A stretch of DNA of 58,140 bases, taken from the NCBI GenBank assembly GCA_937983475.1, contig CALJZV010000083.1:1-58140 (forward strand), written 5' to 3'. The notes under the pieces are model-generated. The model had not been told where the DNA came from, made no database searches, and saw nothing but the letters and a program-made list of their open reading frames with translations. The stretch is from an uncultured Verrucomicrobiales bacterium (GTDB lineage Bacteria > Verrucomicrobiota > Verrucomicrobiia > Limisphaerales > JACDHS01). Both the position numbers and the translations under genes were made by a program. Shown here piece by piece: positions 3,040-58,140 of this stretch. The number at the start of each line of letters is the position of its first letter. Within the stretch, counting starts at the first letter, position 1.

Positions 3040-3053
3040 GAAAGGAGAAAGCA

Positions 3054-6233: not shown

Positions 6234-6247
6234 AAGGATCTCGCGCA

Positions 6248-41730: not shown

Positions 41731-41792
41731 CCGCCCCAAAATGTGCCGTTTGGCACCTTGAAAACTTTTTTTGCAAAATGGCGAAATAATGC

Positions 41793-41821
41793 TTGCATGT
41801 AGCAAAAGGGGTCGCTAAAGT
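41793..41821 (+). promoter_or_regulatory. Candidate rightward sigma70-type promoter
   Basis: TTGCAT at 41793-41798, 17-nt spacer, TAAAGT at 41816-41821. Confidence 0.35.
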
Positions 41822-42159
41822 GCTCGCTTCGATGATGAGCAACCGGCACAGAACCAGTGTTTTCCTACAGGCCCAGCCCGCCGCGTGCGGTGCTGGTCTT
41901 CCGCCTGTTGGCGGCGCGCTGGTGGCCGGAGTGTCAGTCATCCTTTTTCGTAGTTGCACACAAAGGGGGATCCATTGTTGAGGCAGCCGATGCCCGCGTG
42001 GCGATGCGCTGGGGTTGGTTGGACTAAGCCGTTTTGGGATGTCCTCATCTGATTTTGGGTTAGTCAGCGTTTCACCCCTCTAGCTAAGCAACCTTAACCG
42101 ATTGCGCTGCGGCCGAGTTGCCACCCCAAACCAAAGCCGCGCCATCGGCTGTCGTAACA

Positions 42160-42705
42160 ATGGATCCCCCGGCGAGTGCTGCCGGTTTACATATAGAAAG
42201 TGAGAAAGGAGAGCGGTGTTCCCTGTGCTCTATACACCCAACCCCAAAAGTGATTGACGTAGAACATGCTGTAATCGTGGCCGCCGTTGTGTGGTTTGTG
42301 CTTGGCCTGCTGGCCGGGTTTGTGCTGTGCGCCGGGCTGCTAAAGGGCGGCACCGCCATGGCCGCCCGTGCTTTGGGCCGCGCCAAGGCTGCGCTGGAGG
42401 AGCTGAAGGCCATGCAGGCCGACGTTGCCCCGCAGACGGCCCGCATCAAGGTGCTTCGCGATGACCTACTGCGGCGCGAGGCCAAGTTCCTCGCTTCGGT
42501 AGCTTTGCTCCAGGAGGTCACCCGTGATGTGGTCAGCTGCCGCAAGCAGAACCAGCACCACCACGAAATCCTGTGTCAGGCCGTCGATGCCTTCCATAAG
42601 CACGTGGAACAGGGCGGTGCGCCCGCTGCCTTCGTGATCCCCGACCTGTTGTATGATAACCTTGCCAAATGGAACGAGGAGGACGAGCAAAATGACAAAG
42701 CCTAA
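42160..42705 (+). CDS. Single-pass membrane protein with a coiled-coil tail
   Basis: TM AVIVAAVVWFVLGLLAGFVLCAGLL. Start is uncertain because there is no clear RBS. Confidence 0.45.
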   Translation: MDPPASAAGLHIESEKGERCSLCSIHPTPKVIDVEHAVIVAAVVWFVLGLLAGFVLCAGLLKGGTAMAARALGRAKAALEELKAMQADVAPQTARIKVLRDDLLRREAKFLASVALLQEVTRDVVSCRKQNQHHHEILCQAVDAFHKHVEQGGAPAAFVIPDLLYDNLAKWNEEDEQNDKA

Positions 42706-43363
42706 CTTACCGCTACACCCTGAAAAAGTCCACTGTATGTTATTGACGAGCGTGCGTCACTTGGGTCAAGAGTATGCGCGCGGCACAGTGATGGAATATA
42801 TTGGCCCCGGTCAGTACGTGGAGAGTGACGTAGTGCTGCGACAGCCGCTTGGAGGCACCCTGTCCATTAGCCGAGAAAGGGTGGCTTTTGTGACAGTGCA
42901 GCTTCGAGACGACAAGGCTAAGACGGAGGAATTTGCCGCCGCTTTTGGTTTGCGCAAGATTGAGAATCCCCACATGGCTGAACTTGAGCGGGTGTTGGGC
43001 TTGCGTTTTCCCGAGCATTTGTGTGAGCTGATCCGCTACCATGTGGACCGCCCACCGGGGCAAGTCCAGTGGCATGATTTTCATACTCGCACTTGGGCGT
43101 GGAGGATTAATGGGGTGTGGAGCACGCCGCTGGACTTGTTGCCGCCCCATGTGCGGAGCAAGGCCTGCGCTGAGGACAGCAAAGCGTGGGAAACCTTCCG
43201 CGAGTCTTGGTTTGCTATCCCCAACGACCGCGAGACGGTCAACAGCGTGTTGGACCATATTTGGCCCCCGGCCCAGCCGGAAGAGAACCCCCAGCTTGCC
43301 AAGTTGGAGGAATTAACCCAAAACCTGATTGAAGTTGTGAAGGAAATAAAATGTCGATCCTAA
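42692..43363 (+). CDS. Hypothetical protein, weak SMI1/KNR4 (SUKH)-like resemblance
   Basis: GAGGAGGA RBS, then ATG 42692. Contains ELERVLGLRFPEHLCELI. Confidence 0.4.
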   Translation: MTKPNLPLHPEKVHCMLLTSVRHLGQEYARGTVMEYIGPGQYVESDVVLRQPLGGTLSISRERVAFVTVQLRDDKAKTEEFAAAFGLRKIENPHMAELERVLGLRFPEHLCELIRYHVDRPPGQVQWHDFHTRTWAWRINGVWSTPLDLLPPHVRSKACAEDSKAWETFRESWFAIPNDRETVNSVLDHIWPPAQPEENPQLAKLEELTQNLIEVVKEIKCRS

Positions 43364-44400
43364 GATTAGGTGAGCTTTTTTGTGGCCCCGGTGGGCTGGG
43401 TTTGGGGGCAGCTATGGCTTCAGACGCGGTGCGCCATGTTTGGGCTACAGACTATGACGCTGATAGTTGTGCCACCTACGGGCTTAATTTGGCAGACGAT
43501 TGGGACAACGTGCTCTGTTGTGATGTGCGGACTTTACGTTGGAGCACGTTAGGCCGAATATCCGCAGTGGATATCTTAACCTTTGGTTTCCCATGCAATG
43601 ACTTCAGCGTTGTGGGCGAGCAGCGTGGGCTGTCTGGTAAATACGGGCCACTTTATGTCTACTGTGCGCGGGCGTTGGAGTATTTCAAGCCATCGTTTTT
43701 TGTTGCCGAAAATGTAGGTGGCCTGCGCTCTGCCGATGGCGGCAGGGCCTTTGAGGCTGTGCTAGGTAGATTCCGCAAAGCTGGATATAGCCTCTATCCA
43801 CACTTATACGATTTCAGCAAATACGGGGTGCCTCAGGCGCGTAAACGGATTGTGATTGTAGGTGTGCGCAGGGATATTGCTCTAGTGTATAGGGTTCCAT
43901 GCCCTAGTTTATATTCGCACATCGATGTTTCCTGCCGCACAGCGTTAGAGTGCCCGCCTATCCCTGAGCTTGCGGCGAATCAAGAGCCCACTAAACAAAG
44001 CCCCGCAGTTATTGAGCGGCTTAGGCACATCAAGCCGGGACAAAACGCTTTCAATGCCGATTTGCCGGAACACTTGAAGTTGAACGTGAAGGGCGCAACT
44101 ATAAGCCAGATCTACAGGCGACTTGATCCCGACAAACCCGCCTACACCATAACCGGCAGCGGAGGCGGTGGAACGCATGTTTACCATTGGGCTGATCCAC
44201 GAGCCTTGACCAATCGGGAGCGGGCGCGCCTGCAAAGTTTTCCGGATTATTATGAGTTCTGTGGCAGGCGTGGCAGTGTTCGTAAACAGATCGGCATGGC
44301 AGTTCCTCCGGTGGGCGCAAAAGCTATTTTTAAGGCCTTATTCAGTTGCGTCAACGGTGTGGAGTATCCTTGGATAGAACAGAATATTAAAGGAGATTGA
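43351..44400 (+). CDS. dcm: DNA (cytosine-5)-methyltransferase
   Basis: Motifs ELFCGPGGLGLG (I), FGFPCNDFS (IV), ENV (VI), QARKR (VIII), TNRERARLQSFPDYYEF (IX) and GMAVPP (X). Confidence 0.9.
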   Translation: MSILRLGELFCGPGGLGLGAAMASDAVRHVWATDYDADSCATYGLNLADDWDNVLCCDVRTLRWSTLGRISAVDILTFGFPCNDFSVVGEQRGLSGKYGPLYVYCARALEYFKPSFFVAENVGGLRSADGGRAFEAVLGRFRKAGYSLYPHLYDFSKYGVPQARKRIVIVGVRRDIALVYRVPCPSLYSHIDVSCRTALECPPIPELAANQEPTKQSPAVIERLRHIKPGQNAFNADLPEHLKLNVKGATISQIYRRLDPDKPAYTITGSGGGGTHVYHWADPRALTNRERARLQSFPDYYEFCGRRGSVRKQIGMAVPPVGAKAIFKALFSCVNGVEYPWIEQNIKGD

Positions 44401-44402
44401 AA

Positions 44403-44756
44403 ATGGAGCGTAAAGCCCGCAAACAACTGGCACACAAGTTGCGCGTGCTGGCCGATGTGAACCAGACGGGCACCCGTGAGGACGTGTCTATCCACTTGGC
44501 CGCCAACTTTACAACCGAAGACCTGCGGCAAGCTGCCGACTGCTGTGAGCCGCCCGATCCGCAACAGGCAGAGGCGGCACTGGAAGAAATAGCGGGAATG
44601 GAAGGAATGACTTTGCTAGGTGCCGATTCAAATTCCCCCGGTGTGACTGGCGCGCCGCGAATGCACGAGATAGGCTCGCATAAAGCGTTCAATCAATGCG
44701 CACAAATAGCGCGGGAAGCCCTAAGCCGGATGCGTGGATTGGAGGCTGGGAAGTGA
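44403..44756 (+). CDS. Hypothetical protein
   Basis: AAGGAG RBS, then ATG 44403. Confidence 0.5.
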   Translation: MERKARKQLAHKLRVLADVNQTGTREDVSIHLAANFTTEDLRQAADCCEPPDPQQAEAALEEIAGMEGMTLLGADSNSPGVTGAPRMHEIGSHKAFNQCAQIAREALSRMRGLEAGK

Positions 44757-45013
44757 AAATCGACATCCCCAAAAAGAAATGGTGTCAGGCCGGATTCTTC
44801 AAGAATGGTGACCTGATGTTTGATGAATCCGACAATCTCTATCTCGGGGTAGCCGATCACATCAACACGGCATATTGGCAAAACCGCTCAACTGTTCCTG
44901 TTGTGGCTTTGCCTCAAGGCTATCTGATGGAGATCCCAAGCATCACCAGAATGAGGCACGCGCACTTGAAGCTGGTTGAAGACCGACAGGCGGAACTGGA
45001 GGCGCGAGGATGA
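44753..45013 (+). CDS. Hypothetical protein
   Basis: GGAGG, then GTG 44753, overlapping the upstream stop. Confidence 0.45.
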   Translation: MKIDIPKKKWCQAGFFKNGDLMFDESDNLYLGVADHINTAYWQNRSTVPVVALPQGYLMEIPSITRMRHAHLKLVEDRQAELEARG

Positions 45014-45759
45014 AGCTCAGCAAACGGAAAAAGCAGATTCGCTACGCTCGCCAACGGGAGCGTGACAAGCGGCCCTGTGTAATGTGCGGCGAGCTGACCA
45101 ACGGCCATTGGGTGCCGCCCTGCTTGGGAGAGCCGGGGTTCTTTATTTGTGAGCGCAAGACCAAGGAAGATGTGAAAAAGGCTGGTGGAAAAATGAGCGA
45201 CAAACTAACAGGGTGGCTCCCTGAGGAAAAGATCGATGATGAGATGCACGAGGCCTACTGTGTTCTTGCAGGCAGGCGGTTGGAGCGGCTGCCCAAGGAC
45301 GAGGTCTTCGCCCTCTACCAGTATTTGCACGCCAACCCCGCGCCCACGGCCGAGGGGTTCTTCAGGTTTGTGCAGCGCAACCGCAGCCCCGCGCAAAAGG
45401 ACTTTAAGCCGTGGCCGCCCTGCGACCGTGAGACGCACCCCGACTACCAGTCGGGCGGGTGGGACAACATGGAGGGCATCCTTGTGTCGCTGCCCGCCTA
45501 CGCTTACGGGCGCGCGTGCGTCAACGCCTTTGCCGGGCGTAGCCCTGACGAGTGTGAGGTGGTTGAGGACGCCGTGATGGCGGAAGTGTCGAAGGTCTAC
45601 ATGCACGTCAGCGACGGACGCTTCAGCAACCCGCGCACGCGGGCAGAACACGTGATCAGCTGTCACGATGAGCTGGTCATGGATGAGCGCGATAAAATTG
45701 AGGCCGAAAAACTTGAGCAAGACCTAAAGGAGAAAATTAAAAATGATCCCAACAATTGA
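45010..45759 (+). CDS. Hypothetical protein with an N-terminal Cys cluster
   Basis: ATGA overlap. Contains CVMCG...PPC...IC. Confidence 0.5.
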   Translation: MKLSKRKKQIRYARQRERDKRPCVMCGELTNGHWVPPCLGEPGFFICERKTKEDVKKAGGKMSDKLTGWLPEEKIDDEMHEAYCVLAGRRLERLPKDEVFALYQYLHANPAPTAEGFFRFVQRNRSPAQKDFKPWPPCDRETHPDYQSGGWDNMEGILVSLPAYAYGRACVNAFAGRSPDECEVVEDAVMAEVSKVYMHVSDGRFSNPRTRAEHVISCHDELVMDERDKIEAEKLEQDLKEKIKNDPNN

Positions 45760-46093
45760 GGAGCTAATGGCCTTCCTTAAACAAGACACCCGCGTCCGCT
45801 CTGCCGAGTTGGTCGTAAACGTGGCGCGGCTTGAAGCTGGGGCCGAATATGTGATATGGATCTACGTAAATTCTTACGGCATAGATACCGATGACATGAG
45901 CACGCTAGACAAGATAGAAATCAAGTCTGATACTTGGACTGCGCTGTGTGTGCTGGTAGGCGACCACCCGCTGTTCAGCAGCAACTACGCTGCGCGAGCC
46001 CATGACGCGATATGGAGCGGTGATCTGCCGTCTGTGTCAGCTTACGGCAAGCTCGGCACCTATGCGGCGCACAAAAGGGAGGAAAACGGATAA
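45743..46093 (+). CDS. Hypothetical protein
   Basis: AAGGAG RBS 10 nt upstream of the start. Confidence 0.5.
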   Translation: MIPTIEELMAFLKQDTRVRSAELVVNVARLEAGAEYVIWIYVNSYGIDTDDMSTLDKIEIKSDTWTALCVLVGDHPLFSSNYAARAHDAIWSGDLPSVSAYGKLGTYAAHKREENG

Positions 46094-46095
46094 TC

Positions 46096-47052
46096 ATGGA
46101 AGTCCTGTCATCAGCAAATCACATCTGCTACGTCCCGCGCCGCTTTGGCAAGCGCACCGCGTTGATGGTGGTGCAAGCCAACGAGATCATCGCGCAATAT
46201 GATCAGCAAGGCTACAAGCTGACGCTGCGGCAGCTTTACTACCAGTTCGTCGCGCGCGGCCTGCTGTCCAACACCCCGCTGAGCTACAAACGGCTGGGCG
46301 AGGTGATCAGTCAGGCCCGGCTGGCCGGGCTAATAAGCTGGCACGCCATAGAGGACCGCACACGTAACCTCCAACGCCTGCCCAGCTGGGAGGGGCCGAG
46401 CGACATCGTTACCAGCTGCGCCAGTCAGTATATGGTAAACACATGGGACTATCAGCCGCGCTACGTGGAGGTCTGGGTGGAGAAGGAAGCCCTCGCCAGC
46501 GTAGTTGCCCGCGCCGCTGACCGCTGGCGTGTGCCGTGGTTCTGCTGCCGGGGTTACGTGAGTCAGAGTGAGATGTGGGCGGCGGCCCAGCGGCTTGCGT
46601 TTAAGAGCCGGGGCGGCGAGCGGCCTGTGGACATCTTACACCTTGGCGACCACGACCCCAGCGGCATCGACATGACGCGTGACATTTTCGACCGCCTAAC
46701 CCTGTTTCAAGTCCAGGATTTAGAAGTGGAACGGCTCGCGCTAAACAGGGATCAGATCAGGAAGTATAACCCGCCCCCAAACCCGGCTAAAATAACCGAC
46801 AGCCGCGCCAACGCCTACATTGATGAGCATGGCGTGAACAGCTGGGAACTTGATGCGCTGGAACCCAACGTGCTGACCACGCTAATCGATAAAGCGATTG
46901 AAAAGCGCGTGGACGGCACTGCATGGAACCGCCGCATCAGCCGCGAGAACCGCGAGCGCGCTCAGCTGAACAACGTGGCGAAGAACTGGTCTATTGTGAC
47001 CAAGGCCATCAAGGCTTATAAGAAGAAAGGAAAAGGCCGTGGAACCCGATAA
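46096..47052 (+). CDS. Stand-alone Spo11 / topoisomerase VI subunit A-like protein (5Y-CAP + Toprim; Topo mini-A-like)
   Basis: TLRQLYYQFVARGL (winged helix with a Tyr pair), VEVWVEKEAL (Toprim Glu) and HLGDHDPSGIDM (DxD). Confidence 0.55.
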   Translation: MEVLSSANHICYVPRRFGKRTALMVVQANEIIAQYDQQGYKLTLRQLYYQFVARGLLSNTPLSYKRLGEVISQARLAGLISWHAIEDRTRNLQRLPSWEGPSDIVTSCASQYMVNTWDYQPRYVEVWVEKEALASVVARAADRWRVPWFCCRGYVSQSEMWAAAQRLAFKSRGGERPVDILHLGDHDPSGIDMTRDIFDRLTLFQVQDLEVERLALNRDQIRKYNPPPNPAKITDSRANAYIDEHGVNSWELDALEPNVLTTLIDKAIEKRVDGTAWNRRISRENRERAQLNNVAKNWSIVTKAIKAYKKKGKGRGTR

Positions 47053-47515
47053 CTCAGAACCGTTTGGCTGGCCCGCTGCCCCCATTAGAATGAATCCGGT
47101 TGTGTATGCCAAGGCTCCCCGGCCCAGCTTTAACCGGGGGCCGGGGCTGCGGTGGCTGCACAACCACCGGCTGGAGGATCCGACGCCCGCGCCCGGCAAC
47201 AGCTGGAAGGTCTACGACCCCGGTGAGCTGGAAGACCTGATCATGAGCCGCTGGGACCTCTACGGCGTGCAGCCTGAGCAACTCTATATTGGCGAGCCGG
47301 TGGCCATCAATACCAGCTACCCCTACCCGTGGCTAGTGGAGCGGCGTTACGTGGGCGTCTATAAGCAGATTATGCCTGAGCAGATGGAGGAGGAGCAGCT
47401 GCACTTTTCAGGCTCCATCATTGTGCAGTGCCTCAGCGGGGTGCCGCGCTACTGGCAGACCAAGCCGCAAGCCAACATAAGAGGAGGCTCGCAATGGGAA
47501 TTCTGGACGCAATAG
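47039..47515 (+). CDS. Hypothetical protein
   Basis: GTG start after AAAGGAAAAGG. Confidence 0.4.
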   Translation: MEPDNSEPFGWPAAPIRMNPVVYAKAPRPSFNRGPGLRWLHNHRLEDPTPAPGNSWKVYDPGELEDLIMSRWDLYGVQPEQLYIGEPVAINTSYPYPWLVERRYVGVYKQIMPEQMEEEQLHFSGSIIVQCLSGVPRYWQTKPQANIRGGSQWEFWTQ

Positions 47516-47826
47516 AAGACCGCTGGCGCATCCCCCTCGATCAGCTGCCTTACGGGCGCGAGTGGCCTTTCCGCTACGGCGCGCAATGGTATTATCGCGT
47601 CAACATGCGGCACGCCGTAGGCGGCAGCGATGGCAAGGGCAGCGTGCGCACGTATAAAGAAGCGTGGCTCCCCGATGATCCTACGTTTGGCTCACCCGTG
47701 CTGCTGACGCAACTGGACTTTGACAGGGTGCTTGCCCTCAGTGATGAGCGCGGCGTCTATGTTGGCCCGATAAACTTTGTTTTGTTCAAAGTGTTCAATT
47801 ATACTATAGGAAAGGTGGATTGGTAG
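47494..47826 (+). CDS. Hypothetical protein
   Basis: GAGGAGG RBS, then ATG 47494. Confidence 0.5.
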   Translation: MGILDAIEDRWRIPLDQLPYGREWPFRYGAQWYYRVNMRHAVGGSDGKGSVRTYKEAWLPDDPTFGSPVLLTQLDFDRVLALSDERGVYVGPINFVLFKVFNYTIGKVDW

Positions 47827-47827
47827 A

Positions 47828-48580
47828 ATGACAGCTGAGATTGAGGAGATCAACGGCGGTGGTGATGGTGAAAAGACAAACGTAGGCAAGAAGAACGCCT
47901 ATGTGTGCCCGGTGTGCCTGCGCACCATCGTCACGGTGGATATGGACGTGGGCGTTACCCCGGCAACGCTCGCCTGCCAGAACGCCCGGTGTTCGGGCGA
48001 TGCTATGATGCGCTCGATGTTCTACAGCATCGACCAAGCCCTCCCCCCGGCCTACGAGTGGCGCAAGCCCACGCCGGAAAAGGTGGAGGAGATTTTGGCC
48101 AGCATTGAGGACGAGCAGATTCGCGATGCTGCTGCCAAGGATTTTGAGGACGGCCTGCTGACCCTTGTGGCCTTGGAGGCCGGGCAGCGCAACACCACGA
48201 TGGACACTGTGGGCAGGCTGAAAAAAGAGATGGTGGAGGGCGAGTCGTATAACGTGCGCGTGCGCACGCGCTGCGGCGGCGAATACGTGCGGCAGTTCAT
48301 TGCCCCGCTGCACGACCTTGTCAACATCCCTCTCATCGACTTTACCGCTATCCCGCCCGGTGCCGAGCTGGACGAGGAGACCGTGGCCAGACTGATGGAG
48401 AACGGCGATGTGCGCCAGTTTGCCCTCGCCACCAATACCGACCCGGCCACGGGCAAAGTGTGGTTCGAGTATCTTGAATTGAAGATGCGCCGCTCCGCTG
48501 CCATGGATAAACTTGTGCGCGCCACCGCGATGCCCAAGATGCCCGGCCCGGCCCGGCCCCCAAAAAGGCGGCGCGTGTAA
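47828..48580 (+). CDS. Hypothetical protein with a CPVC...C..C zinc-ribbon-like motif
   Basis: ORF in operon context. The antisense 330-aa ORF was rejected. Confidence 0.5.
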   Translation: MTAEIEEINGGGDGEKTNVGKKNAYVCPVCLRTIVTVDMDVGVTPATLACQNARCSGDAMMRSMFYSIDQALPPAYEWRKPTPEKVEEILASIEDEQIRDAAAKDFEDGLLTLVALEAGQRNTTMDTVGRLKKEMVEGESYNVRVRTRCGGEYVRQFIAPLHDLVNIPLIDFTAIPPGAELDEETVARLMENGDVRQFALATNTDPATGKVWFEYLELKMRRSAAMDKLVRATAMPKMPGPARPPKRRRV

Positions 48581-48922
48581 GTGTTTGCTGAAGACCCCAT
48601 AGAACGCCTTGAGGAGTTGGAACTTAAATTGTTCCCCCTTACCGAGAAGCGCGTATGCCAGACCGGTCAGACGGAGATGCTTGTTGTGTATCCCGACGGC
48701 GACCGGCTGGCCCGTGGGGTCATGGTGCTGAGGATGCCGCATTGTGTGCTCACGTTCTACCGCAAGAGTAAGCTGCGCGCCTTGGTGGTGGATCATGCCC
48801 GTGAAATCAGCCCGCCCGTTGAGGACCAGACTGGCCCTTACGTGCTAATCAATTGGAATGACTACCAACACGCCCGCGCCGACTTGATTAATTGGGGCAT
48901 GATTGAGCCAAAGGAGTTCTGA
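48581..48922 (+). CDS. Hypothetical protein
   Basis: GTG start directly after the upstream stop. Confidence 0.4.
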   Translation: MFAEDPIERLEELELKLFPLTEKRVCQTGQTEMLVVYPDGDRLARGVMVLRMPHCVLTFYRKSKLRALVVDHAREISPPVEDQTGPYVLINWNDYQHARADLINWGMIEPKEF

Positions 48923-48925
48923 CCC

Positions 48926-49423
48926 GTGGACATCAGTAAAGCCCGCGCCATAGTGGAAGACAACATACAGGCCGCCATGTGGCTACTCAATATCCAACAG
49001 TGGAAAATCCATGTTGAATATCGTGACATCAGCGGCCCCAACGACTTTGACGGCGCGGTGGCCGGACAGTGCTTGGCGAACGAGGGCTATAAGGAAGCCA
49101 CGATCATCATCAACGCCCAAGAGATTAGTGACGAGGAGCAGCTGCTCAACATCCTGCGGCACGAGCTGCTCCATGTGGCCGTAAGCGCGTGCTACCACAC
49201 GTTCCGCAAGGCGTGCTTTGAGCATGTGTGTGACCGCCACGCCGAGAACGCCCTGATGGTCGTCTGGACGCGCTGTGACGAGGATGCTGTGCGCCAACTG
49301 GAGGACGTGTTTACTCATGGCCTCAACTTCCCCAACGCCAAGGCCGCGTTTGATAAGGCGCGCGCTGAGCGGGAAGACTACTTTACATCTTCGACGAAGA
49401 AGAAAAAGAAGAAGAAACAATGA
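48926..49423 (+). CDS. Putative HExxH metallopeptidase-like protein
   Basis: LRHELLHVAV. ATGA overlap with the SNF2 gene. Confidence 0.4.
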   Translation: MDISKARAIVEDNIQAAMWLLNIQQWKIHVEYRDISGPNDFDGAVAGQCLANEGYKEATIIINAQEISDEEQLLNILRHELLHVAVSACYHTFRKACFEHVCDRHAENALMVVWTRCDEDAVRQLEDVFTHGLNFPNAKAAFDKARAEREDYFTSSTKKKKKKKQ

Positions 49424-50916
49424 GCCTCACCCCCGGCTACCAGTTCCACACGCCGCCCTACGACCATCAGCGTGACGTGTTCCACGCCAGCAAAGATGAT
49501 GAGTTCTTTGGCCTGCTAATGCAGCAGGGCACGGGCAAGTCTAAGGTCATCGTCGACACCGCTGCCTATCTCCACCTCCGCGACAAGATTGACGCCGTGG
49601 TTATTATTGCGCCCAAAGGGCTCTATGAAAACTGGATCAACGAGGACCCTGAGGACTTCGGCCAGTTCCCCACCCACTTACACCCAAGCATCCGGCCTTA
49701 TTATTTGCTGTGGGAAAACAAGACTAAGAATAAGACTTACCGCAGGAAATTGGAGCTGGCAGCAGACCCGCCAAAGGGCTACGATTTAACGGTCATGGCC
49801 GTTAACATAGAAGCCATCAGCGCGGGGCGCGCCCACGAGTATCTTATGTGGTTCATCAGGCAGCGGCGGTGCCTGCTGGTGGTGGACGAGTCTACCAAAA
49901 TCAAGAACCGCACCAGCAAACGCACCAAGCGCACGCTTGAACTGGCCCGGCTGAGCGGCGCGCTCTACCGACGGATTTTAACAGGGACCCCTGTTACCCG
50001 CAGCCCGTTGGATGCTTACCCGCAGTTCGAGTTCTTGCAGAAGAACTACTTTGGTCAGCGCACATGGTCGGCGTTTCAGAATCGCTACGCCATAACCGAA
50101 CTGACGCAGATCGGTGGGAGGCGGCCCTTTAAGAAGGTCGTGGGCTATCGTCGCGTGGAAGAGCTGGCCAAGCTAATCCAAGAGCACAGCTACCGCGTGC
50201 TCCGGGCCGATTGCCTAGACTTGCCACCGAAGATCTATAGTAAGTTCCAGCTAGAGCTCGCGCCGGAGCAGCGTAAGATCTACGACCGCATGAAGGAACA
50301 CGCCCTTGCCGAGTATGGCGACACCACCGTCGCCGCCCCGCTGGTGATTACGCAGATGATGAAGGCCCATCAAATCACCTGCGGCTACATCATAGACGAC
50401 AACAAGGTGGTGCATCGCTTCTTTGACGAACCGGCCAAGAACCCTCGCATCGCCGCGCTGCTTGAACTTCTCGAGACTATTGACGGCAAGGTAATCATCT
50501 GGGCCAACTTTGTGCCCTGCATAGAGGACATCTATAATGCCCTCGCTGAAGTCTACGGACGCGACGCCGTGCGCACCTACTACGGCGGCACCAGCGATGA
50601 GGACCGCAAAGAGGCCTTGCGCTCGTTCAAGCGTGAGGACGGCGGGGCGCGGTTCTTTATCAGTAACCAATCCACCGGGGGCAGGGGGTTGACGCTCACC
50701 GTGGCTGCGACCGAGGTTTACTACAGCAACAACTACGACTTGGAGGAACGCCTCCAGAGCGAGGACCGCGCTCATCGTATTGGCCAAACCAAGTCGCTCA
50801 GCATCATCGACCTTGTTGCTTCTAATACGGTGGATGGTAAAATAATTCGCTCGCTGCGGTCCAAGAACATGATGGCCGCCACTGTTACCGGCGACCAACT
50901 TGAGGATTGGATATGA
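49420..50916 (+). CDS. SNF2-family helicase/ATPase
   Basis: QQGTGKSKV, LLVVDESTKIKN, STGGRGLTL and QSEDRAHRIGQ motifs. Confidence 0.85.
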   Translation: MSLTPGYQFHTPPYDHQRDVFHASKDDEFFGLLMQQGTGKSKVIVDTAAYLHLRDKIDAVVIIAPKGLYENWINEDPEDFGQFPTHLHPSIRPYYLLWENKTKNKTYRRKLELAADPPKGYDLTVMAVNIEAISAGRAHEYLMWFIRQRRCLLVVDESTKIKNRTSKRTKRTLELARLSGALYRRILTGTPVTRSPLDAYPQFEFLQKNYFGQRTWSAFQNRYAITELTQIGGRRPFKKVVGYRRVEELAKLIQEHSYRVLRADCLDLPPKIYSKFQLELAPEQRKIYDRMKEHALAEYGDTTVAAPLVITQMMKAHQITCGYIIDDNKVVHRFFDEPAKNPRIAALLELLETIDGKVIIWANFVPCIEDIYNALAEVYGRDAVRTYYGGTSDEDRKEALRSFKREDGGARFFISNQSTGGRGLTLTVAATEVYYSNNYDLEERLQSEDRAHRIGQTKSLSIIDLVASNTVDGKIIRSLRSKNMMAATVTGDQLEDWI

Positions 50917-50946
50917 GCATCCAAACAAGGAAGGAGGTGACGCCCC

Positions 50947-51393
50947 ATGGCTGGAACATTAAACGCCGCGCACTTGTTGCGCATTGCGGAACTTGAAGGG
51001 CAGCTTAAGAACTCGGAAGAGTTGAACCAACGGCTGATGAAAGATAATGACGAGCTCCAAGGCAAGCTGGATTTGGTCATGCACGATGTCGTCGACGTCT
51101 GTGTGCATGAGCTTGGACCAGACGCCGAGCACGAAACACTTAACTTTCGGTCGGAGATTCGGCTTCCCAAAGTTGTGGCCGCGCTAAGCGCAGCCAAACT
51201 CAAGCAGCACTTCAACGCAATGCTGCGCAGTGAACTGGCCAAGCGTATTGAGGGCATCGAGATTGCGCACCTTGAACCCAAGGACTGCGTCGCTCAGCCC
51301 AAGGCTCCAGCGGAACCCGCTGCGCCACCTACGCCCCCGCCAGCTGACCCCGAGCCGCCTGCGGATCCCCCGGCACCACCGCCGGAGGAATAA
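50947..51393 (+). CDS. Coiled-coil protein with a Pro-rich C-terminus
   Basis: ORF followed by a terminator. Confidence 0.5.
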   Translation: MAGTLNAAHLLRIAELEGQLKNSEELNQRLMKDNDELQGKLDLVMHDVVDVCVHELGPDAEHETLNFRSEIRLPKVVAALSAAKLKQHFNAMLRSELAKRIEGIEIAHLEPKDCVAQPKAPAEPAAPPTPPPADPEPPADPPAPPPEE

Positions 51394-51403
51394 GAGGCCC
51401 CTA

Positions 51404-51435
51404 GCGCGGGGTCGTCGGTGGCCCCGCGCATTTTT
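51404..51435 (+). terminator. Rho-independent terminator
   Basis: 8-bp stem GCGCGGGG/CCCCGCGC, 10-nt loop, then ATTTTT. Confidence 0.7.
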
Positions 51436-51842: not shown

Positions 51843-52790
51843 ATGCCCACACAAATCACCTCACTCACATTCTGCGCTTTCGATTTAGAAACCACCGGCT
51901 ACGACCCCACCGAGGTTCGCATCTGCGAGTTTGCGGCCAGCCGTTTCAAGCTGGACTACGATGGCAGCGCGCTGGTGCCGTGCCATCTAGATGGCTCTGA
52001 CAGTCTGACCTATCATAAACGATCAGACCCCGGCGTGCCGATACCTCCCGAAGCCAACGGAGAGCAAAAGCAGAGCGATGAAGATGTTGCCACTGCCCTG
52101 CCGGAGGACATGCAGGTTGAGGAGTTTATTAAGAAGATGCGCGGGACGGTGTGGCTTGCCCACAATGCGGCATACGATTATGAGACGCTCGTCCATGCGC
52201 TCATGCGCGCCCGCAAGTGCAGTGAGCAGGAGGCGCGCACCGAGCTGTTCAACGCCCACGTCGGCGTCATCGATACCTTGCGGCTGGCGCGCCATTTGGT
52301 GCCCACCGAGAATCATAAACTCAATACGCTGTTCCATTACTATGGATGTCCGCGCGCCAACGCCCCCACCCACCGGGCCGACGATGATGTGCGCGCGCTG
52401 GTGGATGTGTTCCAAGGTTTGGTTGGCACATGCTTAGAAGGTTTTGCGAAGGACTGGCCCATCACCGAGGACGACCCCGGCCTAAGCCCGAACTTCTGCG
52501 ACGAGCTGTTCAGCACCAGCTACAGCCCGGTAGATTACGGCCGAATCAATTTTGGTAAGCACCGCAACGATGCGCTCGAGGAAGTGCCGTTCTCTTATTT
52601 TGACTGGTGGATCAACAAACGCCGCGCCGAAGACCAGCCCGATTGGGACCGTGAATACACTATGGCCGGGCTTGCCAAACAGGCAGGCGTCAACCCCGAC
52701 AAGTGCGACCGCATCCAAGCCGCCGCCCGCCAGCGATTAGCGGGAGAGCTGCAAGCCTTCTATCCTACCCTTACAGTGGAGCCAGCATAA
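51843..52790 (+). CDS. DnaQ-like DEDDh 3'-5' exonuclease with a DUF3820-like C-terminal domain
   Basis: FDLETTG, HNAAYDYETL and HRADDDVRAL motifs. C-terminal INFGKHRNDALEEVPFSYFDWW. Confidence 0.75.
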   Translation: MPTQITSLTFCAFDLETTGYDPTEVRICEFAASRFKLDYDGSALVPCHLDGSDSLTYHKRSDPGVPIPPEANGEQKQSDEDVATALPEDMQVEEFIKKMRGTVWLAHNAAYDYETLVHALMRARKCSEQEARTELFNAHVGVIDTLRLARHLVPTENHKLNTLFHYYGCPRANAPTHRADDDVRALVDVFQGLVGTCLEGFAKDWPITEDDPGLSPNFCDELFSTSYSPVDYGRINFGKHRNDALEEVPFSYFDWWINKRRAEDQPDWDREYTMAGLAKQAGVNPDKCDRIQAAARQRLAGELQAFYPTLTVEPA

Positions 52791-53221
52791 TGGACAAAAT
52801 CAAGCCCACACCCCAGCCGACAGTCTACGTCGTGCAAGAAGTGCGCGGGCGCAACCTAACCGACGCCGCCCGCTACGGCGACCTCGTAGCCCTGTTGCCG
52901 CCGGGGGAACAGGTTTTCCTGAGGCCAGAGGATACAATTAACACGCTGCGCCGCGCGCTGCGAGACTTTACTTCCGACGACTACCTGTTAGCCATCGGTG
53001 ATCCTGCTGCCATAGCCATCGCGAGCATCGTGGCTGTGGAGGCGAGTGGAGGTTTGTTTACAATGCTCAAGTGGGACAGGGAGCATCGGAAATACTACAA
53101 GATCCGATTAGATATGCGCAAAGCTAAGAAAGGAGAATCATCCAGCGATGCCAATCAAACCGAAAAAGAAGGTGGCCGCCAAAAAAGCGGCGGCTACAAA
53201 GAGCCGAACCAGATTATCTAA
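52790..53221 (+). CDS. Hypothetical conserved phage protein
   Basis: TAATG junction with the upstream gene. The 3' 74 nt overlap the next gene. Confidence 0.5.
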   Translation: MDKIKPTPQPTVYVVQEVRGRNLTDAARYGDLVALLPPGEQVFLRPEDTINTLRRALRDFTSDDYLLAIGDPAAIAIASIVAVEASGGLFTMLKWDREHRKYYKIRLDMRKAKKGESSSDANQTEKEGGRQKSGGYKEPNQII

Positions 53222-53873
53222 ACCCAAGGGCACGGCCAAGGCACCACCGCCCGGCCTGCCGTTTGACATGTTGGAGAAGGATGCCGAGGCACGGGCCGAG
53301 GGCCAAGAGGATACGCTCGCGCTCGTCAGTAAATACGCCGCCGAGGTTGAGGAGTTGGACGAGACTGAGGCGATGCTGCTTGCCAAGGTGGAAACCATTG
53401 GCGCGCGGCGCACAAAGTTGTTGGAGGACGATATACCAAAGTTGATGGAGCAAGTGGGCCTCGCCAGTTTTAAGTTGGAAAACGGCGCGGAGGTTGTGGT
53501 AGACGAACCCATTTATGCTTCCATCAGTAAGAAGAATCAGGGTGACGCTTACCAGTGGCTCCGTGATAACGACCATGAGGACCTCATCAAAAATGAGATC
53601 AAGGTTGCGCTGGGCAAGGGTGAGGACGAACTGGCCAAGTTGGTGATGAAGTATCTTGTCAGCAAAAAGATCGATTTCACACAAAAGGAGAGCGTCCACG
53701 CTGGATCATTAAAGGCTTTTGTGCGCACGTTGCTGGAGGAAGAAGCGCAGCCCGGCTACACCGCCGAAAAATTGCCTCAAGACCTATTTGGCGTTTACCG
53801 GCCCAAGATAGCCAAGATCCAAAAACCTAAAGTAAAGAAAGGAGGCACCCACAAAACCAAGAAAGGAGAATGA
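53148..53873 (+). CDS. Hypothetical protein with a Lys/Ala/Pro-rich N-terminal tail
   Basis: AAAGGAG RBS. N-terminus PIKPKKKVAAKKAAATK. Confidence 0.5.
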   Translation: MPIKPKKKVAAKKAAATKSRTRLSKPKGTAKAPPPGLPFDMLEKDAEARAEGQEDTLALVSKYAAEVEELDETEAMLLAKVETIGARRTKLLEDDIPKLMEQVGLASFKLENGAEVVVDEPIYASISKKNQGDAYQWLRDNDHEDLIKNEIKVALGKGEDELAKLVMKYLVSKKIDFTQKESVHAGSLKAFVRTLLEEEAQPGYTAEKLPQDLFGVYRPKIAKIQKPKVKKGGTHKTKKGE

Positions 53874-53939
53874 CGTAGGTGCGTCTTTCTGCCGTTTAAC
53901 CTTTAACCCAATTGAAAACCAATAGAAGGAGATAGGACT

Positions 53940-54968
53940 ATGGCTCTCAAGCCCGTAGGAAAGAAGAAACCAGCGACTAAGCCGCCCAAGAAAAAAGCGG
54001 CCTCCAAGAAGCCCACAGCGGCCACCGCTAAAAAGAAGCCCCCGGCCACACCGCCGCCCCCAGCAGTGGAGGAGGAAAGTGCCATCGCCACCGAGGAGGC
54101 TCCCGAGGAAGAGGCTCCCCAAACTGCTGCCGCCCCGGCAGTGCGGCAGTCAACGGAAGTTGGCCCGGCCGACGCCTTTGACATGCTGGCGCAGGACAGT
54201 CAAGAGCAAGACCTTGGCTTTGGCCAAGAGGACCTTGAGCTGGCGCGCATTATGCTGCTGCAAAAGTCGAATGACCAATGCACGCCCGGCCATGAGGACC
54301 ACATCGCCGGTGCTCAGCCCGGCATGTATTATCACACTGTGACGAAGGAGATCTTCGACAGCGTGACTGTTATCCCCGTCCACTATCAGCGGATTTATAC
54401 CGAGTGGACTCCGCGGGACGATGGTGGCGGCTTTCACGGCACGCACGACCCGCACAGCAACGTCGTGCAATCGGCCACTCCGCACGAGGAGAACAACCGG
54501 GTGCTTGTGATGGATAATGGACATGAGCTGGTGGAGACGGCGCAATACTTCTGCCTCTTGGTCAAAGAGGACGGAACTCTTGACCCTGTCGTCTTCAGCA
54601 TGAAGGCTACCCACTGGAAGGCCGCGCGGAACTGGAACACCGTAATGTCGCGTCAGCGCATTACGCACCCCAAAACCGGGCGCACGTTCACGGCCCCTAT
54701 GTTCTCAAATATGTATTGCTTTGGCAGCGCGCTGCGCACCGAGGATCAATACAGCTGGCACGTTCCGGAGCTGGAGGGTCACGAGGCTCTGGACTTCGCC
54801 GATGAGGATGCGTTGGCGGCCTATGCCCAAGCGCGCGACCTTGGCCAGCAGGCCCGTGAGGGGCTGGTAAAGGCCAGTGCTGAGGTAGACGTCAGCGGCC
54901 CCCGTGATGTGGATGCAACCGTTGAAGATGATGACGGTGGCGGTGGGAACGGCCAACTTCCGTTCTAA
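53940..54968 (+). CDS. Hypothetical protein with a Lys/Pro/Ala-rich N-terminal tail
   Basis: GAAGGAG RBS. N-terminus KKKPATKPPKKKAASKKPTAATAKKKPPATPPPP. Confidence 0.5.
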   Translation: MALKPVGKKKPATKPPKKKAASKKPTAATAKKKPPATPPPPAVEEESAIATEEAPEEEAPQTAAAPAVRQSTEVGPADAFDMLAQDSQEQDLGFGQEDLELARIMLLQKSNDQCTPGHEDHIAGAQPGMYYHTVTKEIFDSVTVIPVHYQRIYTEWTPRDDGGGFHGTHDPHSNVVQSATPHEENNRVLVMDNGHELVETAQYFCLLVKEDGTLDPVVFSMKATHWKAARNWNTVMSRQRITHPKTGRTFTAPMFSNMYCFGSALRTEDQYSWHVPELEGHEALDFADEDALAAYAQARDLGQQAREGLVKASAEVDVSGPRDVDATVEDDDGGGGNGQLPF

Positions 54969-55045: not shown

Positions 55046-56623
55046 ATGGCCACCAAACGCACAACCAAAAAGAAAAAGCCTGCCGCCCCACCGCCACCGC
55101 CCGAAGAGCAGACGATGGCGTGGCAGTTCCACACCTTGTTTATGGGATGTGAACACAATCACGGGAAATACATCCTCACCAAGGAAACCACCGAGCAGTC
55201 TGCAAAGGGTAAGACCACCGGCAAGGCTTGGACGGCCCCCGGCCCCGCCACCGTGGAGATGTGGGACGAGCACCTTGCCGGGCGCAACGGGCTGGGTGTA
55301 AGCCCGATCCGCAAGGATGGGAAAATATATTGGGCCGCGCTCGACATTGATGTCTACAACACCGACCTAGAAAAACTCAGCCTCACCCTCAAAGACCATC
55401 CCATCCTCCTCTGCCGCACCAAGTCGGGCGGCGCACACCTTTTCTTCTTTTTCAAAGACCCCCTGCCAGCCATAACCGTCCGCAAGAAACTCCAGGAGCT
55501 GGCTAGTAGTTTAGGTCACGGCGATTGCGAGATATTCCCCAAGCAAAGCAAGATCACCAGTAAAGACGACAGCGGCAATTGGATCAACGTGCCCTATTAC
55601 GACCACGAGGTCACAACCCGTTACTGCATCTACCGGGGCAAAGACCTAACCGCTGAAGAGTTTTTAGCCAAGGCCTACGAAGTGCGCATGGACGAAGAGA
55701 CGCTCGTAGGCCTTGCCGTTATCGACACCACTAAGGACCTCGACCTACTGCCCGACGGGCCTCCCTGTTTGCAGCTCCTGTTGAACCAAGGCATCATGGA
55801 GGGCCAACGAGACGTTGCGATGTTCAACGTGGCCGTGTGCTACCGCAAGAAGTTCACTGAAAGCTGGCGGCAGGAACTGGAGAAGACGAACAGGGATAAC
55901 TGTAAGCCGCCGCTAAATAGCGAGGAGATTGGGAAGATAATCAAGTCGGTGGAGCGGAAGGATTATTTTTACCAGTGCAACAACGCGCCGCTGAAGAATT
56001 ACTGCAACCGTCAGCTGTGCATGACGCGCCCATTTGGCATCAATCCGGAGGATGAACTGCCGGACTTTAGCGGGCTGACCAAGGTGGAGACGGACCCGCC
56101 CATGTATTTCGTCACGGTAAATGAGGACAGGCTGGGGCCGGTCTCGGCCAATGAGCTGCTGAACCAAAGGCTGTTCCAAACGCGCTGCTTTGAGGGCGTC
56201 AACATTGTCATTCCCCAAGTGGCCGCAAAGGACTGGCGGCGTGTGATGACCACCTTAACCGAACGCATGGACACCATCAGCATCCCCGAAGAGATGACGG
56301 CCAAGGGCCAGCTGCTCCAACACTTGCACGACTACTGTGATAAGAACAGCCGTCCCGACCGTGAGAAGCTGGTGAACTATAAAGTGTGGGAAGACGACCG
56401 GGCAATTTACAACTTCCGCATTGAGGGCTTCATGCGTTACTTGGAGCAAGTGCGCTTTAGAGAGTTTACGCGGCAACAAGTGGTCAGCATTTTCCACAAC
56501 ATAGGCATGAAGAAGCGACAACTCTGGGTCAAGCAGCGGCACTTCAACGTCTGGCTGTTGCCGAAGCCCGAGTATGAAGAAATTGTCCACGAGACCCCAC
56601 ACATTGAGGAGCCACCGTTCTAA
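55046..56623 (+). CDS. AEP-family primase-polymerase with a PriCT-like domain
   Basis: AALDIDVY (DxD), KSGGAHLFFFF (sGxH), and PPCLQLLLNQGIMEGQRDVAMFNVAVCY. Confidence 0.7.
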   Translation: MATKRTTKKKKPAAPPPPPEEQTMAWQFHTLFMGCEHNHGKYILTKETTEQSAKGKTTGKAWTAPGPATVEMWDEHLAGRNGLGVSPIRKDGKIYWAALDIDVYNTDLEKLSLTLKDHPILLCRTKSGGAHLFFFFKDPLPAITVRKKLQELASSLGHGDCEIFPKQSKITSKDDSGNWINVPYYDHEVTTRYCIYRGKDLTAEEFLAKAYEVRMDEETLVGLAVIDTTKDLDLLPDGPPCLQLLLNQGIMEGQRDVAMFNVAVCYRKKFTESWRQELEKTNRDNCKPPLNSEEIGKIIKSVERKDYFYQCNNAPLKNYCNRQLCMTRPFGINPEDELPDFSGLTKVETDPPMYFVTVNEDRLGPVSANELLNQRLFQTRCFEGVNIVIPQVAAKDWRRVMTTLTERMDTISIPEEMTAKGQLLQHLHDYCDKNSRPDREKLVNYKVWEDDRAIYNFRIEGFMRYLEQVRFREFTRQQVVSIFHNIGMKKRQLWVKQRHFNVWLLPKPEYEEIVHETPHIEEPPF

Positions 56624-58140
56624 TGTATAACAATCTCCACATGCTGCTGGGGCCGCCCGGCACGGGTAAAACCACGCGGTTGCTCAAGATCGTAGAGGAG
56701 ACGCTAAAGGCTGGCACCCCGGCCAACCGGATAGCGTTTGTGTCGTTCACCAAGAAGGCCACCGAAGAGGCTCGCGACCGGGCCGTGCAGACCCTCGGCC
56801 TTGGCCGTAATCAGTTCCAATGGTTCCGCACGCTGCACAGCTTTGCGTTCCGCTGCTTGGGCATGACGCGCAATGAAGTGCTGGACAAGAACCACTATCG
56901 CGAAATCGGCGCGCTCATTGGCGTCCCCATGTCGGGCTATACCAACTTTGAGGACGATGAAGATGCGGGCAAGGCCCACGAGGGCGACTCTATGTTGTTC
57001 GTGATTAACCTTGCGCGCATCATGGAGGTTCCCCTTGATTACGCCTTTGACAAATACAACAACGACGAGCGCATCGACTTTGCCGAAACCAAACAACTGG
57101 CCGCCACCATCGACGACTATAAACGCAAGCATGGGATGTGCGACTACTGCGACATGATTGCCCGATTTGCTCTCAGCGACGACCCCTACATCCCATCCCT
57201 GCACACGCTGATCGTAGACGAAGCGCAGGACCTCAGTCGTCTTCAATGGCGCATGGTGCGCAAGTTATACAAAGCAGCCGAGGTGAGTTACTTGGCGGGC
57301 GATGACGACCAAGCAATTTATGAGTGGGCCGGTGCCAGCGTGGATGACTTCATTCGCGTTGGTCGGGAGGCCGAAACATGCGAGGTTCTGGATAAGAGCT
57401 ACCGCCTGCCGCGCGCTGTGTATGAACGCGGCTTGGATATTATAGACAACGTGGAGGAGCGGCTACCCAAGGATTGGACACCCCGTGAGGAACAGGGTTA
57501 CGTGGAGACCTATCCGGACCTCAGCCATGTTGACATGGGACCAAAGACTGGCAGTTGGCTGGTGCTGGTGCGCAACAACTTTCTCATTCCGACGGCGGTG
57601 CAGTTTTTGCGTGAGAGCGGGCTGCCTTACCAGACCCGTAGATGGTCGCCGGTTACGTGTGAGAACTTAAAAGCGATCCGCATGTGGGAACGCCTCCGCA
57701 AAGGCGGCAGCCTTACGTTGGAAGAAGTCAAAGAGGTCTACGGCAAGATGCCGCCGCGCCGTGAGTTTGTTGATCCCAAGCGTAGGAACTTGAAAGGCGC
57801 GGACCCGGATGGCCAGTTCACCCTTGCCGTGCTCAAGGAACACCACGGCCTGAACACCGAACGCGTCTGGTATGAAGCCCTGATGAAAATACACGACGAG
57901 GAGCGTGAGTATTATCGCGCCGTGTTAAAGGGCGGCGAGCCGCTTAACAAGCCGCCGCGCATCACGGTGAGCAGCATACACGGGGCCAAGGGCGGCGAGG
58001 CTGATAACGTGTTAGTGATGCCCGATGTGAGCTACCGCACCTATGACGGCATCCGCACCAACGCCGACTGTGAGCATCGCGTGTTATACGTGGCCGCCAC
58101 AAGGGCCAAGCACGCGCTCCACATTATCCAGCCCCAGACA
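56623..58140 (+). CDS. SF1 UvrD/PcrA-like helicase, open at the window end
   Basis: TAATG start. GPPGTGKTT, LIVDEAQDL, KSYRLPR, IHGAKGGEADNV and LYVAATRAK motifs. 506 codons with no stop. Not in the supplied ORF track. Confidence 0.85.
   Translation, partial: MYNNLHMLLGPPGTGKTTRLLKIVEETLKAGTPANRIAFVSFTKKATEEARDRAVQTLGLGRNQFQWFRTLHSFAFRCLGMTRNEVLDKNHYREIGALIGVPMSGYTNFEDDEDAGKAHEGDSMLFVINLARIMEVPLDYAFDKYNNDERIDFAETKQLAATIDDYKRKHGMCDYCDMIARFALSDDPYIPSLHTLIVDEAQDLSRLQWRMVRKLYKAAEVSYLAGDDDQAIYEWAGASVDDFIRVGREAETCEVLDKSYRLPRAVYERGLDIIDNVEERLPKDWTPREEQGYVETYPDLSHVDMGPKTGSWLVLVRNNFLIPTAVQFLRESGLPYQTRRWSPVTCENLKAIRMWERLRKGGSLTLEEVKEVYGKMPPRREFVDPKRRNLKGADPDGQFTLAVLKEHHGLNTERVWYEALMKIHDEEREYYRAVLKGGEPLNKPPRITVSSIHGAKGGEADNVLVMPDVSYRTYDGIRTNADCEHRVLYVAATRAKHALHIIQPQT
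58041..58140. repeat. Right copy of the imperfect terminal overlap (pairs with 10-109)
   Basis: 89/100 identity with no gaps. Confidence 0.8.

Follow-up and report, generated by a model that had tools for sequence, protein, structure and literature searches.

A divergent member of the viral Mini-A family, with putative Spo11-like activity, in phage DNA from an uncultured Verrucomicrobiales bacterium

What use can a phage make of the DNA-cleaving half of a type IIB topoisomerase when no ATPase half accompanies it? This question is raised by contig CALJZV010000083.1, a stretch of 58,140 nt which was analysed as a whole and is called "the window" in the following. The window is one entire contig of a metagenome-assembled genome (MAG) of an uncultured Verrucomicrobiales bacterium, which comprises 4.0 Mb in 623 contigs and is 81% complete. 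On the + strand it carries an open reading frame (ORF) at 46096..47052 with an ATG start and a product of 318 amino acids. An earlier inspection of the letters alone, here termed the sequence-only reading, had recognised in this product three landmark motifs of type IIB A subunits in the correct order and had proposed a stand-alone "mini-A" protein similar to Topo VI-A and Spo11. All of the strings quoted at that time are found in the translation, in the order TLRQLYYQFVARGL (residues 43-56), ARLAGLISW..IEDRTR (residues 74-90), VWVEKEAL (residues 126-133) and HLGDHDPSGID (residues 182-192). Judged by its sequence, the protein belongs almost certainly to Mini-A, a subfamily of type IIB topoisomerase A subunits established by Takahashi et al. 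in 2019/2020 (PMC7671362). The gene is a divergent new member of an already described and widespread viral family, since Mini-A was described in 2019 and both PHROGs and numerous RefSeq phage records already give it the label "DNA topoisomerase". Overall, the data are best explained, with good confidence on our part, by a type IIB A-subunit protein of the Mini-A type with a presumed Spo11-like breaking and rejoining activity.

Mini-A proteins have been delimited by a combination of traits, namely a length of about 300 residues, an RxxY/FY motif containing the catalytic tyrosine, a Toprim glutamate followed by DxDxxG, the sequence xWELDAL in a C-terminal T2BI box, a viral or proviral location, and no neighbour with a Bergerat fold (PMC7671362). 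Each of these traits has its counterpart in the window. With 318 residues the protein is of suitable size, and it displays R45-Q-L-Y48-Y49, followed by E129 and D185-H-D187-P-S-G190 and finally by S249-W-E-L-D-A-L255. The contig bears phage replication, modification and structural modules, and no gene for a Bergerat-fold protein was found on it. As exemplars of the subfamily, a protein of Pseudomonas phage NP1 (Figure 2 of that study) and a prophage protein of Listeria monocytogenes have been presented (PMC7671362). The identity to the NP1 protein amounts to 44.9% at a coverage of 89% (E=8e-73), and genes of Chi-like Salmonella phages, which have also been cited for Mini-A (PMC7671362), reach 41-43%. 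In addition, residues 11-305 match PHROG 6247, "DNA topoisomerase", with E=8.8e-108. The divergence of the new member is apparent from the closest database protein, which is at most 57% identical, as well as from extensions at both termini, of 6 residues at the N-terminus and short and basic at the C-terminus. The family itself is large; in a library clustered at 50% identity it comprises 12,057 representatives at E<=1e-3 and 2,920 at E<=1e-30.

The predicted architecture consists of two domains. According to the AlphaFold2 secondary structure and the register of the profile alignment described below, a 5Y-CAP (winged-helix) region would extend over about residues 19-90 (46150..46365, + strand) and a Toprim core over about residues 123-213 (46462..46734, + strand). 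The model has a mean predicted local distance difference test (pLDDT) score of 84.5 and a predicted template modelling (pTM) score of 0.76. It places R45 and the catalytic-tyrosine candidate Y49 on a helix formed by residues 44-53, and the DRTR motif at residues 87-90. The Toprim fold has a glutamate after strand 1 and the DxD motif after strand 3. The modelled secondary structure fits this fold, since E129 stands at the end of a strand at residues 123-128 and D185-H-D187-P-S-G190 follows a strand at residues 178-183; the motif CRGY.S (residues 151-156) lies within the same core. Further towards the C-terminus, two additional motifs can be recognised. The first, PPPNPAK.TDSR (residues 226-237; 46771..46806, + strand), is nearly invariant in Mini-A and is located opposite the Top6A sequence "ELSTD--KLTDKD". 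The second is the T2BI box SWELDAL (residues 249-255; 46840..46860, + strand), the signature which sets Mini-A apart from Topo VI and Topo VIII. In Top6A of M. jannaschii, the equivalent glutamate of this box forms hydrogen bonds with the arginine and the catalytic tyrosine (PMC7671362). A variant of the signature was observed in ORF35 of Haloarcula californiae icosahedral virus 1 (HCIV-1; L130:5926-6957), where VELNAL is nearer to the RVELNAM of Topo VIII than to WELDAL and where the acidic motif reads GDFNPSG, with asparagine replacing the second aspartate.

Conservation of these positions was determined in 94 relatives, most of which are less than 50% identical to one another and which include an archaeal virus and Cellulophaga phages. 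E129, D185 and G190 are present in 94/94 sequences, and R45, Y49 and D187 in 93/94 each; within the T2BI box, E251 is found in all 94 and W250 in 89 of them. Near-invariance among such diverse relatives means that the motifs do not occur by chance. It also has a bearing on the idea that Mini-A might catalyse nothing and instead bind DNA, act as a scaffold or serve as a decoy for Topo VI-A-like defence nucleases of the host. Such a role would agree with the lack of any known Mini-A activity and with the label "DNA binding protein" given to the homologue in Microbacterium and Curtobacterium phage records. However, catalytic residues that are near-invariant over more than 12,000 clusters are unexpected for a scaffold, and inteins target the Toprim glutamate motif, so that we regard this explanation as very unlikely. 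The inteins were recognised in four long homologues of 650-712 amino acids (P0170, P0178, P0209 and P0230), which contain Hint and LAGLIDADG domains inserted at E125|V126 and at W127|V128 in the numbering of the window protein, that is, 1-3 residues before the Toprim glutamate. Inteins home into conserved catalytic motifs, chiefly of proteins of replication, recombination and repair. Their placement supports the importance of the Toprim site and leaves the reaction undefined. Domain fusion as an explanation for the long Mini-A members was considered and rejected, as these carry inteins, and in members extended at the C-terminus no Pfam domain was found. Two further records are unusual in another respect. 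The Mini-A gene of Parabacteroides phage PDS1 (L132:5944-6830) is annotated as two coding sequences, "DNA topoisomerase" and "DNA primase", and that of Roseobacter phage RDJL Phi 1 as gp26 and gp27; both are matched by tblastn in two pieces, pointing to a frameshift, a sequencing error or a truly split gene.

Is the protein really related to Topo VI-A and Spo11? The sequence-only reading had named profile and structure searches as the arbiter, with the absence of any 5Y-CAP/Toprim match as grounds for refutation, and the outcome was divided. In their routine form these searches gave, formally, just such an outcome. The 318-amino acid protein has no match in Pfam, including the TP6A_N and Toprim models, and none in NCBIfam; phmmer as well as hmmsearch with two family profiles (A1 and the broader A3) detected no Topo VI-A match among PDB chains; and a Foldseek search of the AlphaFold2 model against PDB and BFVD returned no structure of Topo VI-A, Spo11 or JetD. 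The Foldseek matches consisted of generic Rossmann-like alpha/beta folds and marginal primase/TOPRIM domains. The positive answer to the question comes from one profile-profile comparison at 80% probability together with the register of the motifs, a basis which has to be counted among the points against the explanation.

For this purpose-built comparison, a set of 44 archaeal Top6A sequences was assembled, including the haloarchaeal type, which is about 30% identical to the rest. A yeast Spo11 sequence served only as bait in the PDB sequence library and led to chain 8urq_A as well as to fragments of Top6A chains; the M. mazei Top6A fragment then fetched archaeal loci, and a complete Methanococcoides genome was the centre for a phylum-wide harvest of Top6A. 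The Mini-A profile was built from 92 representatives of the library clustered at 50% identity, to which ORF35 of HCIV-1 and gp62 of Cellulophaga phage phi38:2 were added. Alignment of the 94 Mini-A with the 44 Top6A sequences by hhalign gave E=1.5e-5, a probability of 80% and a score of 46.6 in a single colinear alignment of 203 columns. In this alignment the catalytic-tyrosine motifs LTLRQLYY and STLRELYY, the Toprim glutamate motifs VWVEKEAL and IAIETGG, and the DxD motifs LGDHDPSG and FTDGDPW are in register; CRGY.S is found opposite KGQPA, and PPPNPAK.TD opposite ..KLTD. The reversed template scored 18.6. None of 100 column shuffles (maximum 27.7) and none of 100 shuffles of 10-column blocks, which preserve the motifs (maximum 35.5), attained 46.6. 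Without the two distant viral members the result is weaker (P=7.8e-4). When the shallow alignment A1 was compared with single sequences, the values were not significant (E=0.17 for Spo11 and E=0.023 for M. mazei Top6A), and the sole local alignment was the catalytic-tyrosine motif, with LTLRQLYY placed on TTVRDIFYS of Spo11. Because the alignment begins at residue 22 of Mini-A and at residue 86 of Top6A, the N-terminal segment of Top6A that binds Top6B is absent from Mini-A, in agreement with the literature.

The alternative to kinship would be a generic Toprim protein, Rossmann-like or of the primase type, whose motifs are alike by chance. The negative Pfam, NCBIfam and PDB searches and the generic alpha/beta and weak primase/TOPRIM matches in Foldseek are what such an explanation would predict, and half of the Mini-A gene of phage PDS1 even bears the label "primase". 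Chance would nevertheless have to account for colinearity over 203 columns and both domains with three catalytic motifs in register, which no shuffle equalled, and for the independent selection of the catalytic-tyrosine motif of Spo11 and Top6A by the single-sequence comparison. TP6A_N is, moreover, the Pfam family touched most often below threshold (3 of 37 members, E>=0.18), and the relationship has been published (PMC7671362). An accidental resemblance is thus extremely improbable in our view, and from these comparisons the protein can be regarded as a genuine, very divergent 5Y-CAP and Toprim protein. During the Top6A harvest, haloarchaeal-type genomes (L120-L123; G032, G094, G043 and G021) were seen to encode both a normal Top6A (LSIRQLFYTLK ... 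FTDMDPWG) and a Top6A-like paralogue of about 430-444 amino acids with STKRDCYYMLK, in which DxDxxG was not found by pattern search.

A second claim of the sequence-only reading, that no GHKL partner is visible in the window, holds equally. A six-frame search of the window yielded no match to a Top6B model, to an N-box pattern or to two GHKL-like families from Mini-A neighbourhoods, G1 and G2; since the Top6B model is a single sequence, this result is weaker than the Pfam-based one, in which HATPase_c_3 had 16 matches in the MAG and 0 on this contig. TP6A_N was not found elsewhere in the MAG. The neighbourhoods of relatives were inspected at 80 IMG/VR loci with 46-57% identity and flanks of up to 10 kb. 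The genes that flank Mini-A in the window recur at no more than 5 of the 80 loci, and in a de novo clustering the most frequent neighbour family reached 11 of 76 loci, the leading families being helicases, a recombinase-like protein and PolA. Mini-A has no conserved cis partner in the window or in the family sample. G1 and G2 were examined as a conceivable "Mini-B" and rejected; they lie near Mini-A at about 6 of 76 loci, but Mini-A lies within 10 kb at only 5 of 33 G1 loci, and 4 of these 5 are near-identical relatives of each other. Neither G1 nor G2 aligned significantly with Top6B in hhalign. In their own right, both are of some note. G1 (481 amino acids) has the N-box ELLQNAWD, sub-threshold matches to HATPase_c_3 (E=5e-4) and HATPase_c (E=5e-3), and a C-terminal HEFxH motif as in metalloproteases, and it is common in viral contigs (33 loci, L213-L245), mostly without Mini-A. 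G2 (475 amino acids) has the GHKL-like N-box EFVSNAIDR. Where they accompany Mini-A, they are 2-4 genes away (L135, genes 13 and 14; L158, genes 20 and 22; L165, L172, L176 and L207).

In which setting, then, does the gene lie? A Shine-Dalgarno sequence, GGGAGG, can be read at 46077..46082 (+ strand), 13 nt 5' of the Mini-A ATG. The preceding ORF (45743-46093) ends with its stop codon 2 nt before this start codon, the 3' end of the gene shares 14 nt with the next ORF (GTG at 47039), and the sole strong intrinsic terminator nearby is found at 51404-51429. From this arrangement it follows that Mini-A is part of a tightly packed rightward operon. This putative early/replication operon (41750..51429, + strand) would extend from promoter-like sites at about 41.75 kb to the terminator mentioned, limits that are drawn solely from gene packing and consensus scans.

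The window is probably a complete phage genome, because its ends overlap imperfectly: in a comparison of positions 58041-58140 with 1-110, the last 15 nt were found to repeat at nt 95. This suggests circular permutation or terminal redundancy, in a genome whose assembly drew on a mixed population. Mini-A occurs as a single copy in the MAG, and of 40 related genomes just 1 has a distant match, the pattern to be expected of a viral gene that is mobile. It sits in a rightward DNA-metabolism arm. Further genes of this arm encode a C5 methyltransferase (43351-44400) and an SNF2-type helicase (49420-50916), both within the putative operon, as well as a polymerase-exonuclease-like protein (51843-52790), a primase (55046-56623) and a superfamily 1 (SF1) helicase (from 56623 to the window end). 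Between the polymerase-exonuclease-like gene and the primase gene, two consecutive genes (53148-54968, + strand) match Pfam families defined on Pseudanabaena phage Pam3, one like gp33 (DUF7307, E=9e-25) and one like gp34 (E=6e-49). Pam3 also has a Mini-A gene (49% identity), and the replication arm is hence partly common with a cyanophage. Across the window ends the arm continues, wrapping to the left end, into a thymidine-hypermodification cassette (1085-5592, + strand) and a family A DNA polymerase (6209-8245), which the cassette adjoins on its 5' side.

The sequence-only reading had assumed a phage that makes modified DNA, and the cassette bears this out. It contains a 5-hydroxymethyldeoxyuridine (5-hmdU) DNA kinase (1085-2059; PF18723, E=3.6e-46), a radical-SAM/SPASM enzyme, a TAGT-type glycosyltransferase, an HD/YfbR-like nucleotidase and a thymidylate-synthase homologue, which is a probable deoxyuridine monophosphate (dUMP) hydroxymethylase. 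The radical-SAM enzyme and the glycosyltransferase suggest that the chemistry of modification may be unlike the characterised M6, ViI and SP10 types. Whether this modification is connected with Mini-A is a separate matter. For a phage that makes modified DNA, the sequence-only reading had considered a role in replication, concatemer processing or cleavage of host DNA. In a concrete form, Mini-A would be a hydrolytic Toprim nuclease resembling JetD or MksG which degrades host or competitor DNA, while hypermodified thymidine and 5-methylcytosine shield the phage. A precedent is available in MksG, a Toprim nuclease which works without ATP and whose fold is like that of Topo VI-A (PMC10123090), and the phage does encode both the 5-hmdU kinase cassette and a C5 methyltransferase; one Mini-A member, furthermore, touches the Pfam family DUF2399, the C-terminal domain of JetD, with E=0.085.

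The distribution of the genes gives no support to a cleavage of host DNA coupled to DNA modification. In INPHARED, Mini-A relatives were detected in 83 records (PaMx25/NP1-like, Chi-like, Sano/Salvo, RDJL, Brevundimonas, Microbacterium and other phages) and the 5-hmdU kinase in 409 (YuA/M6-like, ViI-like, SP10 and others), with hardly any shared organism among the matches listed. Of 50 whole IMG/VR records bearing Mini-A, a single one has the kinase; among the 32 with a completeness of at least 90%, the number is likewise 1. These 50 records range from 35 to 166 kb, some have direct terminal repeats, and five are proviruses, in which degradation of host DNA would be harmful unless tightly controlled. 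Given the scant overlap in INPHARED and the single case in 50, a tie between Mini-A and 5-hmdU hypermodification was ruled out; Mini-A is a widely distributed module and not the companion of one lifestyle. The catalytic residues argue in the same direction, as MksG and JetD are without a catalytic tyrosine in the CAP-like domain (PMC10123090), whereas R45 and Y49 are kept in 93 of 94 Mini-A sequences. The arginine/tyrosine pair of the 5Y-CAP domain is as invariant as the metal ligands, and for this reason topoisomerase/Spo11 chemistry appears most likely, with tyrosine-less hydrolysis of the MksG/JetD type less likely. A nuclease directed at host or competitor DNA is accordingly rated as quite unlikely. 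A second DNA-modifying phage with Mini-A, albeit of other chemistry, was noticed in passing: in Cellulophaga phage phi38:2 (L131:8770-12153), the distant Mini-A-like gp62 is located about 2 kb upstream of a 7-deazaguanine cluster with GTP cyclohydrolase I, QueF and a DpdA-like transglycosylase.

How might a Mini-A protein act, if it follows Top6A and Spo11? It would form a homodimer with hybrid active sites, in which the acidic Toprim residues of one protomer hold Mg2+ and Tyr49 of the other attacks the DNA backbone. The protein would thereby become joined to the DNA in an intermediate with a 5'-phosphotyrosyl bond that allows resealing, which amounts to an ATP-independent breaking and rejoining of phage DNA during replication or recombination. 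Possible uses include a nick or break that starts rolling-circle or recombination-dependent replication, or a local release of topological stress. Lacking an ATPase gate, Mini-A cannot be a strand-passage machine of the Topo VI type. That cleavage takes place covalently through the tyrosine is, as judged from the conserved residues, fairly probable. Activity without a partner has a model in mouse SPO11, which alone cleaves DNA, remains on the 5' ends and can reseal nicks, limited by dimerisation (PMC11922746). That the protein serves phage replication or recombination, and not an attack on host DNA, has in our view roughly even chances; Mini-A lies inside a replication and nucleotide-metabolism operon, its commonest neighbours elsewhere are helicases and a polymerase, and the homing of inteins into the Toprim active site of some members is a typical feature of phage enzymes of DNA metabolism.

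To the negative searches reported above, several considerations have to be added on the opposing side. The support from the neighbourhoods is weak, with the top neighbour family at 11 of 76 loci. No published activity of any Mini-A protein was found in the literature, and a partner may be encoded in trans by the phage or the host. Archaeal Top6A requires Top6B and ATP for cleavage, and the stand-alone activity of Mini-A is for this reason an extrapolation from SPO11. The sequence-only reading had stated that small A-only homologues are known bioinformatically and are of unknown function, and this still describes the literature; a review of December 2024 calls the role of Mini-A unexplored.

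A more specific proposal is that of a site-specific nickase which starts rolling-circle (sigma) replication in the manner of HUH proteins, with Tyr49 nicking an origin and staying on the 5' end while the 3'-OH primes the phage polymerase. Rolling-circle initiation has been proposed for Asgard skuldviruses, which have Mini-A but no other replication protein (10.1101/2021.07.29.453957), and both the chemistry of a covalent 5' link and the location in a replication operon would be suitable. Against this, the phage of the window has its own PolA, primase and helicases, so that its replication need not depend on Mini-A alone, and besides the CAP domain no sequence-specific DNA-binding module is evident. 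WyrdV4, which has both a HUH Rep and Mini-A, argues against redundancy of the two (10.1101/2021.07.29.453957). The origin-specific nickase thus seems to us unlikely, more plausible though than the host-directed nuclease. A broader version of the preferred Spo11-like reading can be put forward tentatively, namely that Mini-A is a self-sufficient, ATP-independent homodimer whose covalent nicks or breaks are used by bacterial and archaeal viruses to start or sustain replication; we consider it possible, and on the doubtful side. In Mini-A one might even see the type IIB cleavage core in its ancestral form, standing alone prior to the recruitment of a GHKL ATPase.

Mini-A ranks with the largest groups of viral DNA enzymes still to be characterised and possesses a full Spo11/Topo VI cleavage site without an ATPase. 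Its function would bear on the start and management of phage replication and on the origin of type IIB topoisomerases and Spo11. To this group, the window adds a divergent member, unusual in being paired with a thymidine-hypermodification cassette. Of general use are the lack of a conserved cis partner at 76-80 loci, the finding that the GHKL-like neighbour is not a general "Mini-B", and the targeting of the Toprim glutamate motif by inteins. The current picture of Mini-A is left unchanged by these results, and cultivable phages with the gene are no less tractable than the copy in the window.

Among known systems, the published Mini-A proteins are closest. The window protein agrees with them in length, RxxYY, the Toprim glutamate and DxDxxG, xWELDAL, the missing B-binding N-terminus, the viral location and the absence of a Bergerat-fold neighbour (PMC7671362), and it differs in nothing essential, a thymidine-hypermodifying phage being an unusual carrier (1/50). 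With Top6A (PDB 1D3Y, 2ZBK and 2Q2E) it shares the colinear 5Y-CAP and Toprim domains and equivalents of the arginine/tyrosine pair, the glutamate, DxD and the T2BI glutamate (PMC7671362); in contrast, identity is only about 15%, the first ~85 residues, which bind Top6B, are missing, and the similarity falls below Pfam thresholds. The topoisomerase VI holoenzyme additionally has a tandem GHKL ATPase B subunit, not found on the phage contig. Topo VIII is likewise confined to mobile elements, and its A-like half is also without the N-terminal 5Y-CAP segment (PMC7671362); this plasmid-borne B-A fusion, however, has a fused GHKL and transducer half and RVELNAM, whereas the phage protein has neither and carries SWELDAL instead. 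JetD and MksG of the Wadjet/MksBEFG systems have a comparable Topo VI-A-like architecture with Toprim, and MksG is dimeric and ATP-independent in vitro (PMC10123090). They lack the CAP-like catalytic tyrosine and work with an SMC complex, while Mini-A keeps the arginine/tyrosine pair and has no conserved partner; the PHROGs scan gave no SMC-like annotation among the neighbours, and no search aimed at SMC was made. Spo11 (PDB 8URQ/8URU), finally, is eukaryotic, chromosomal and subject to many controlling partners, in all of which it differs from the phage protein. As an A-subunit homologue able to act without an ATPase, it nonetheless provides the best working analogy for a stand-alone Mini-A protein.

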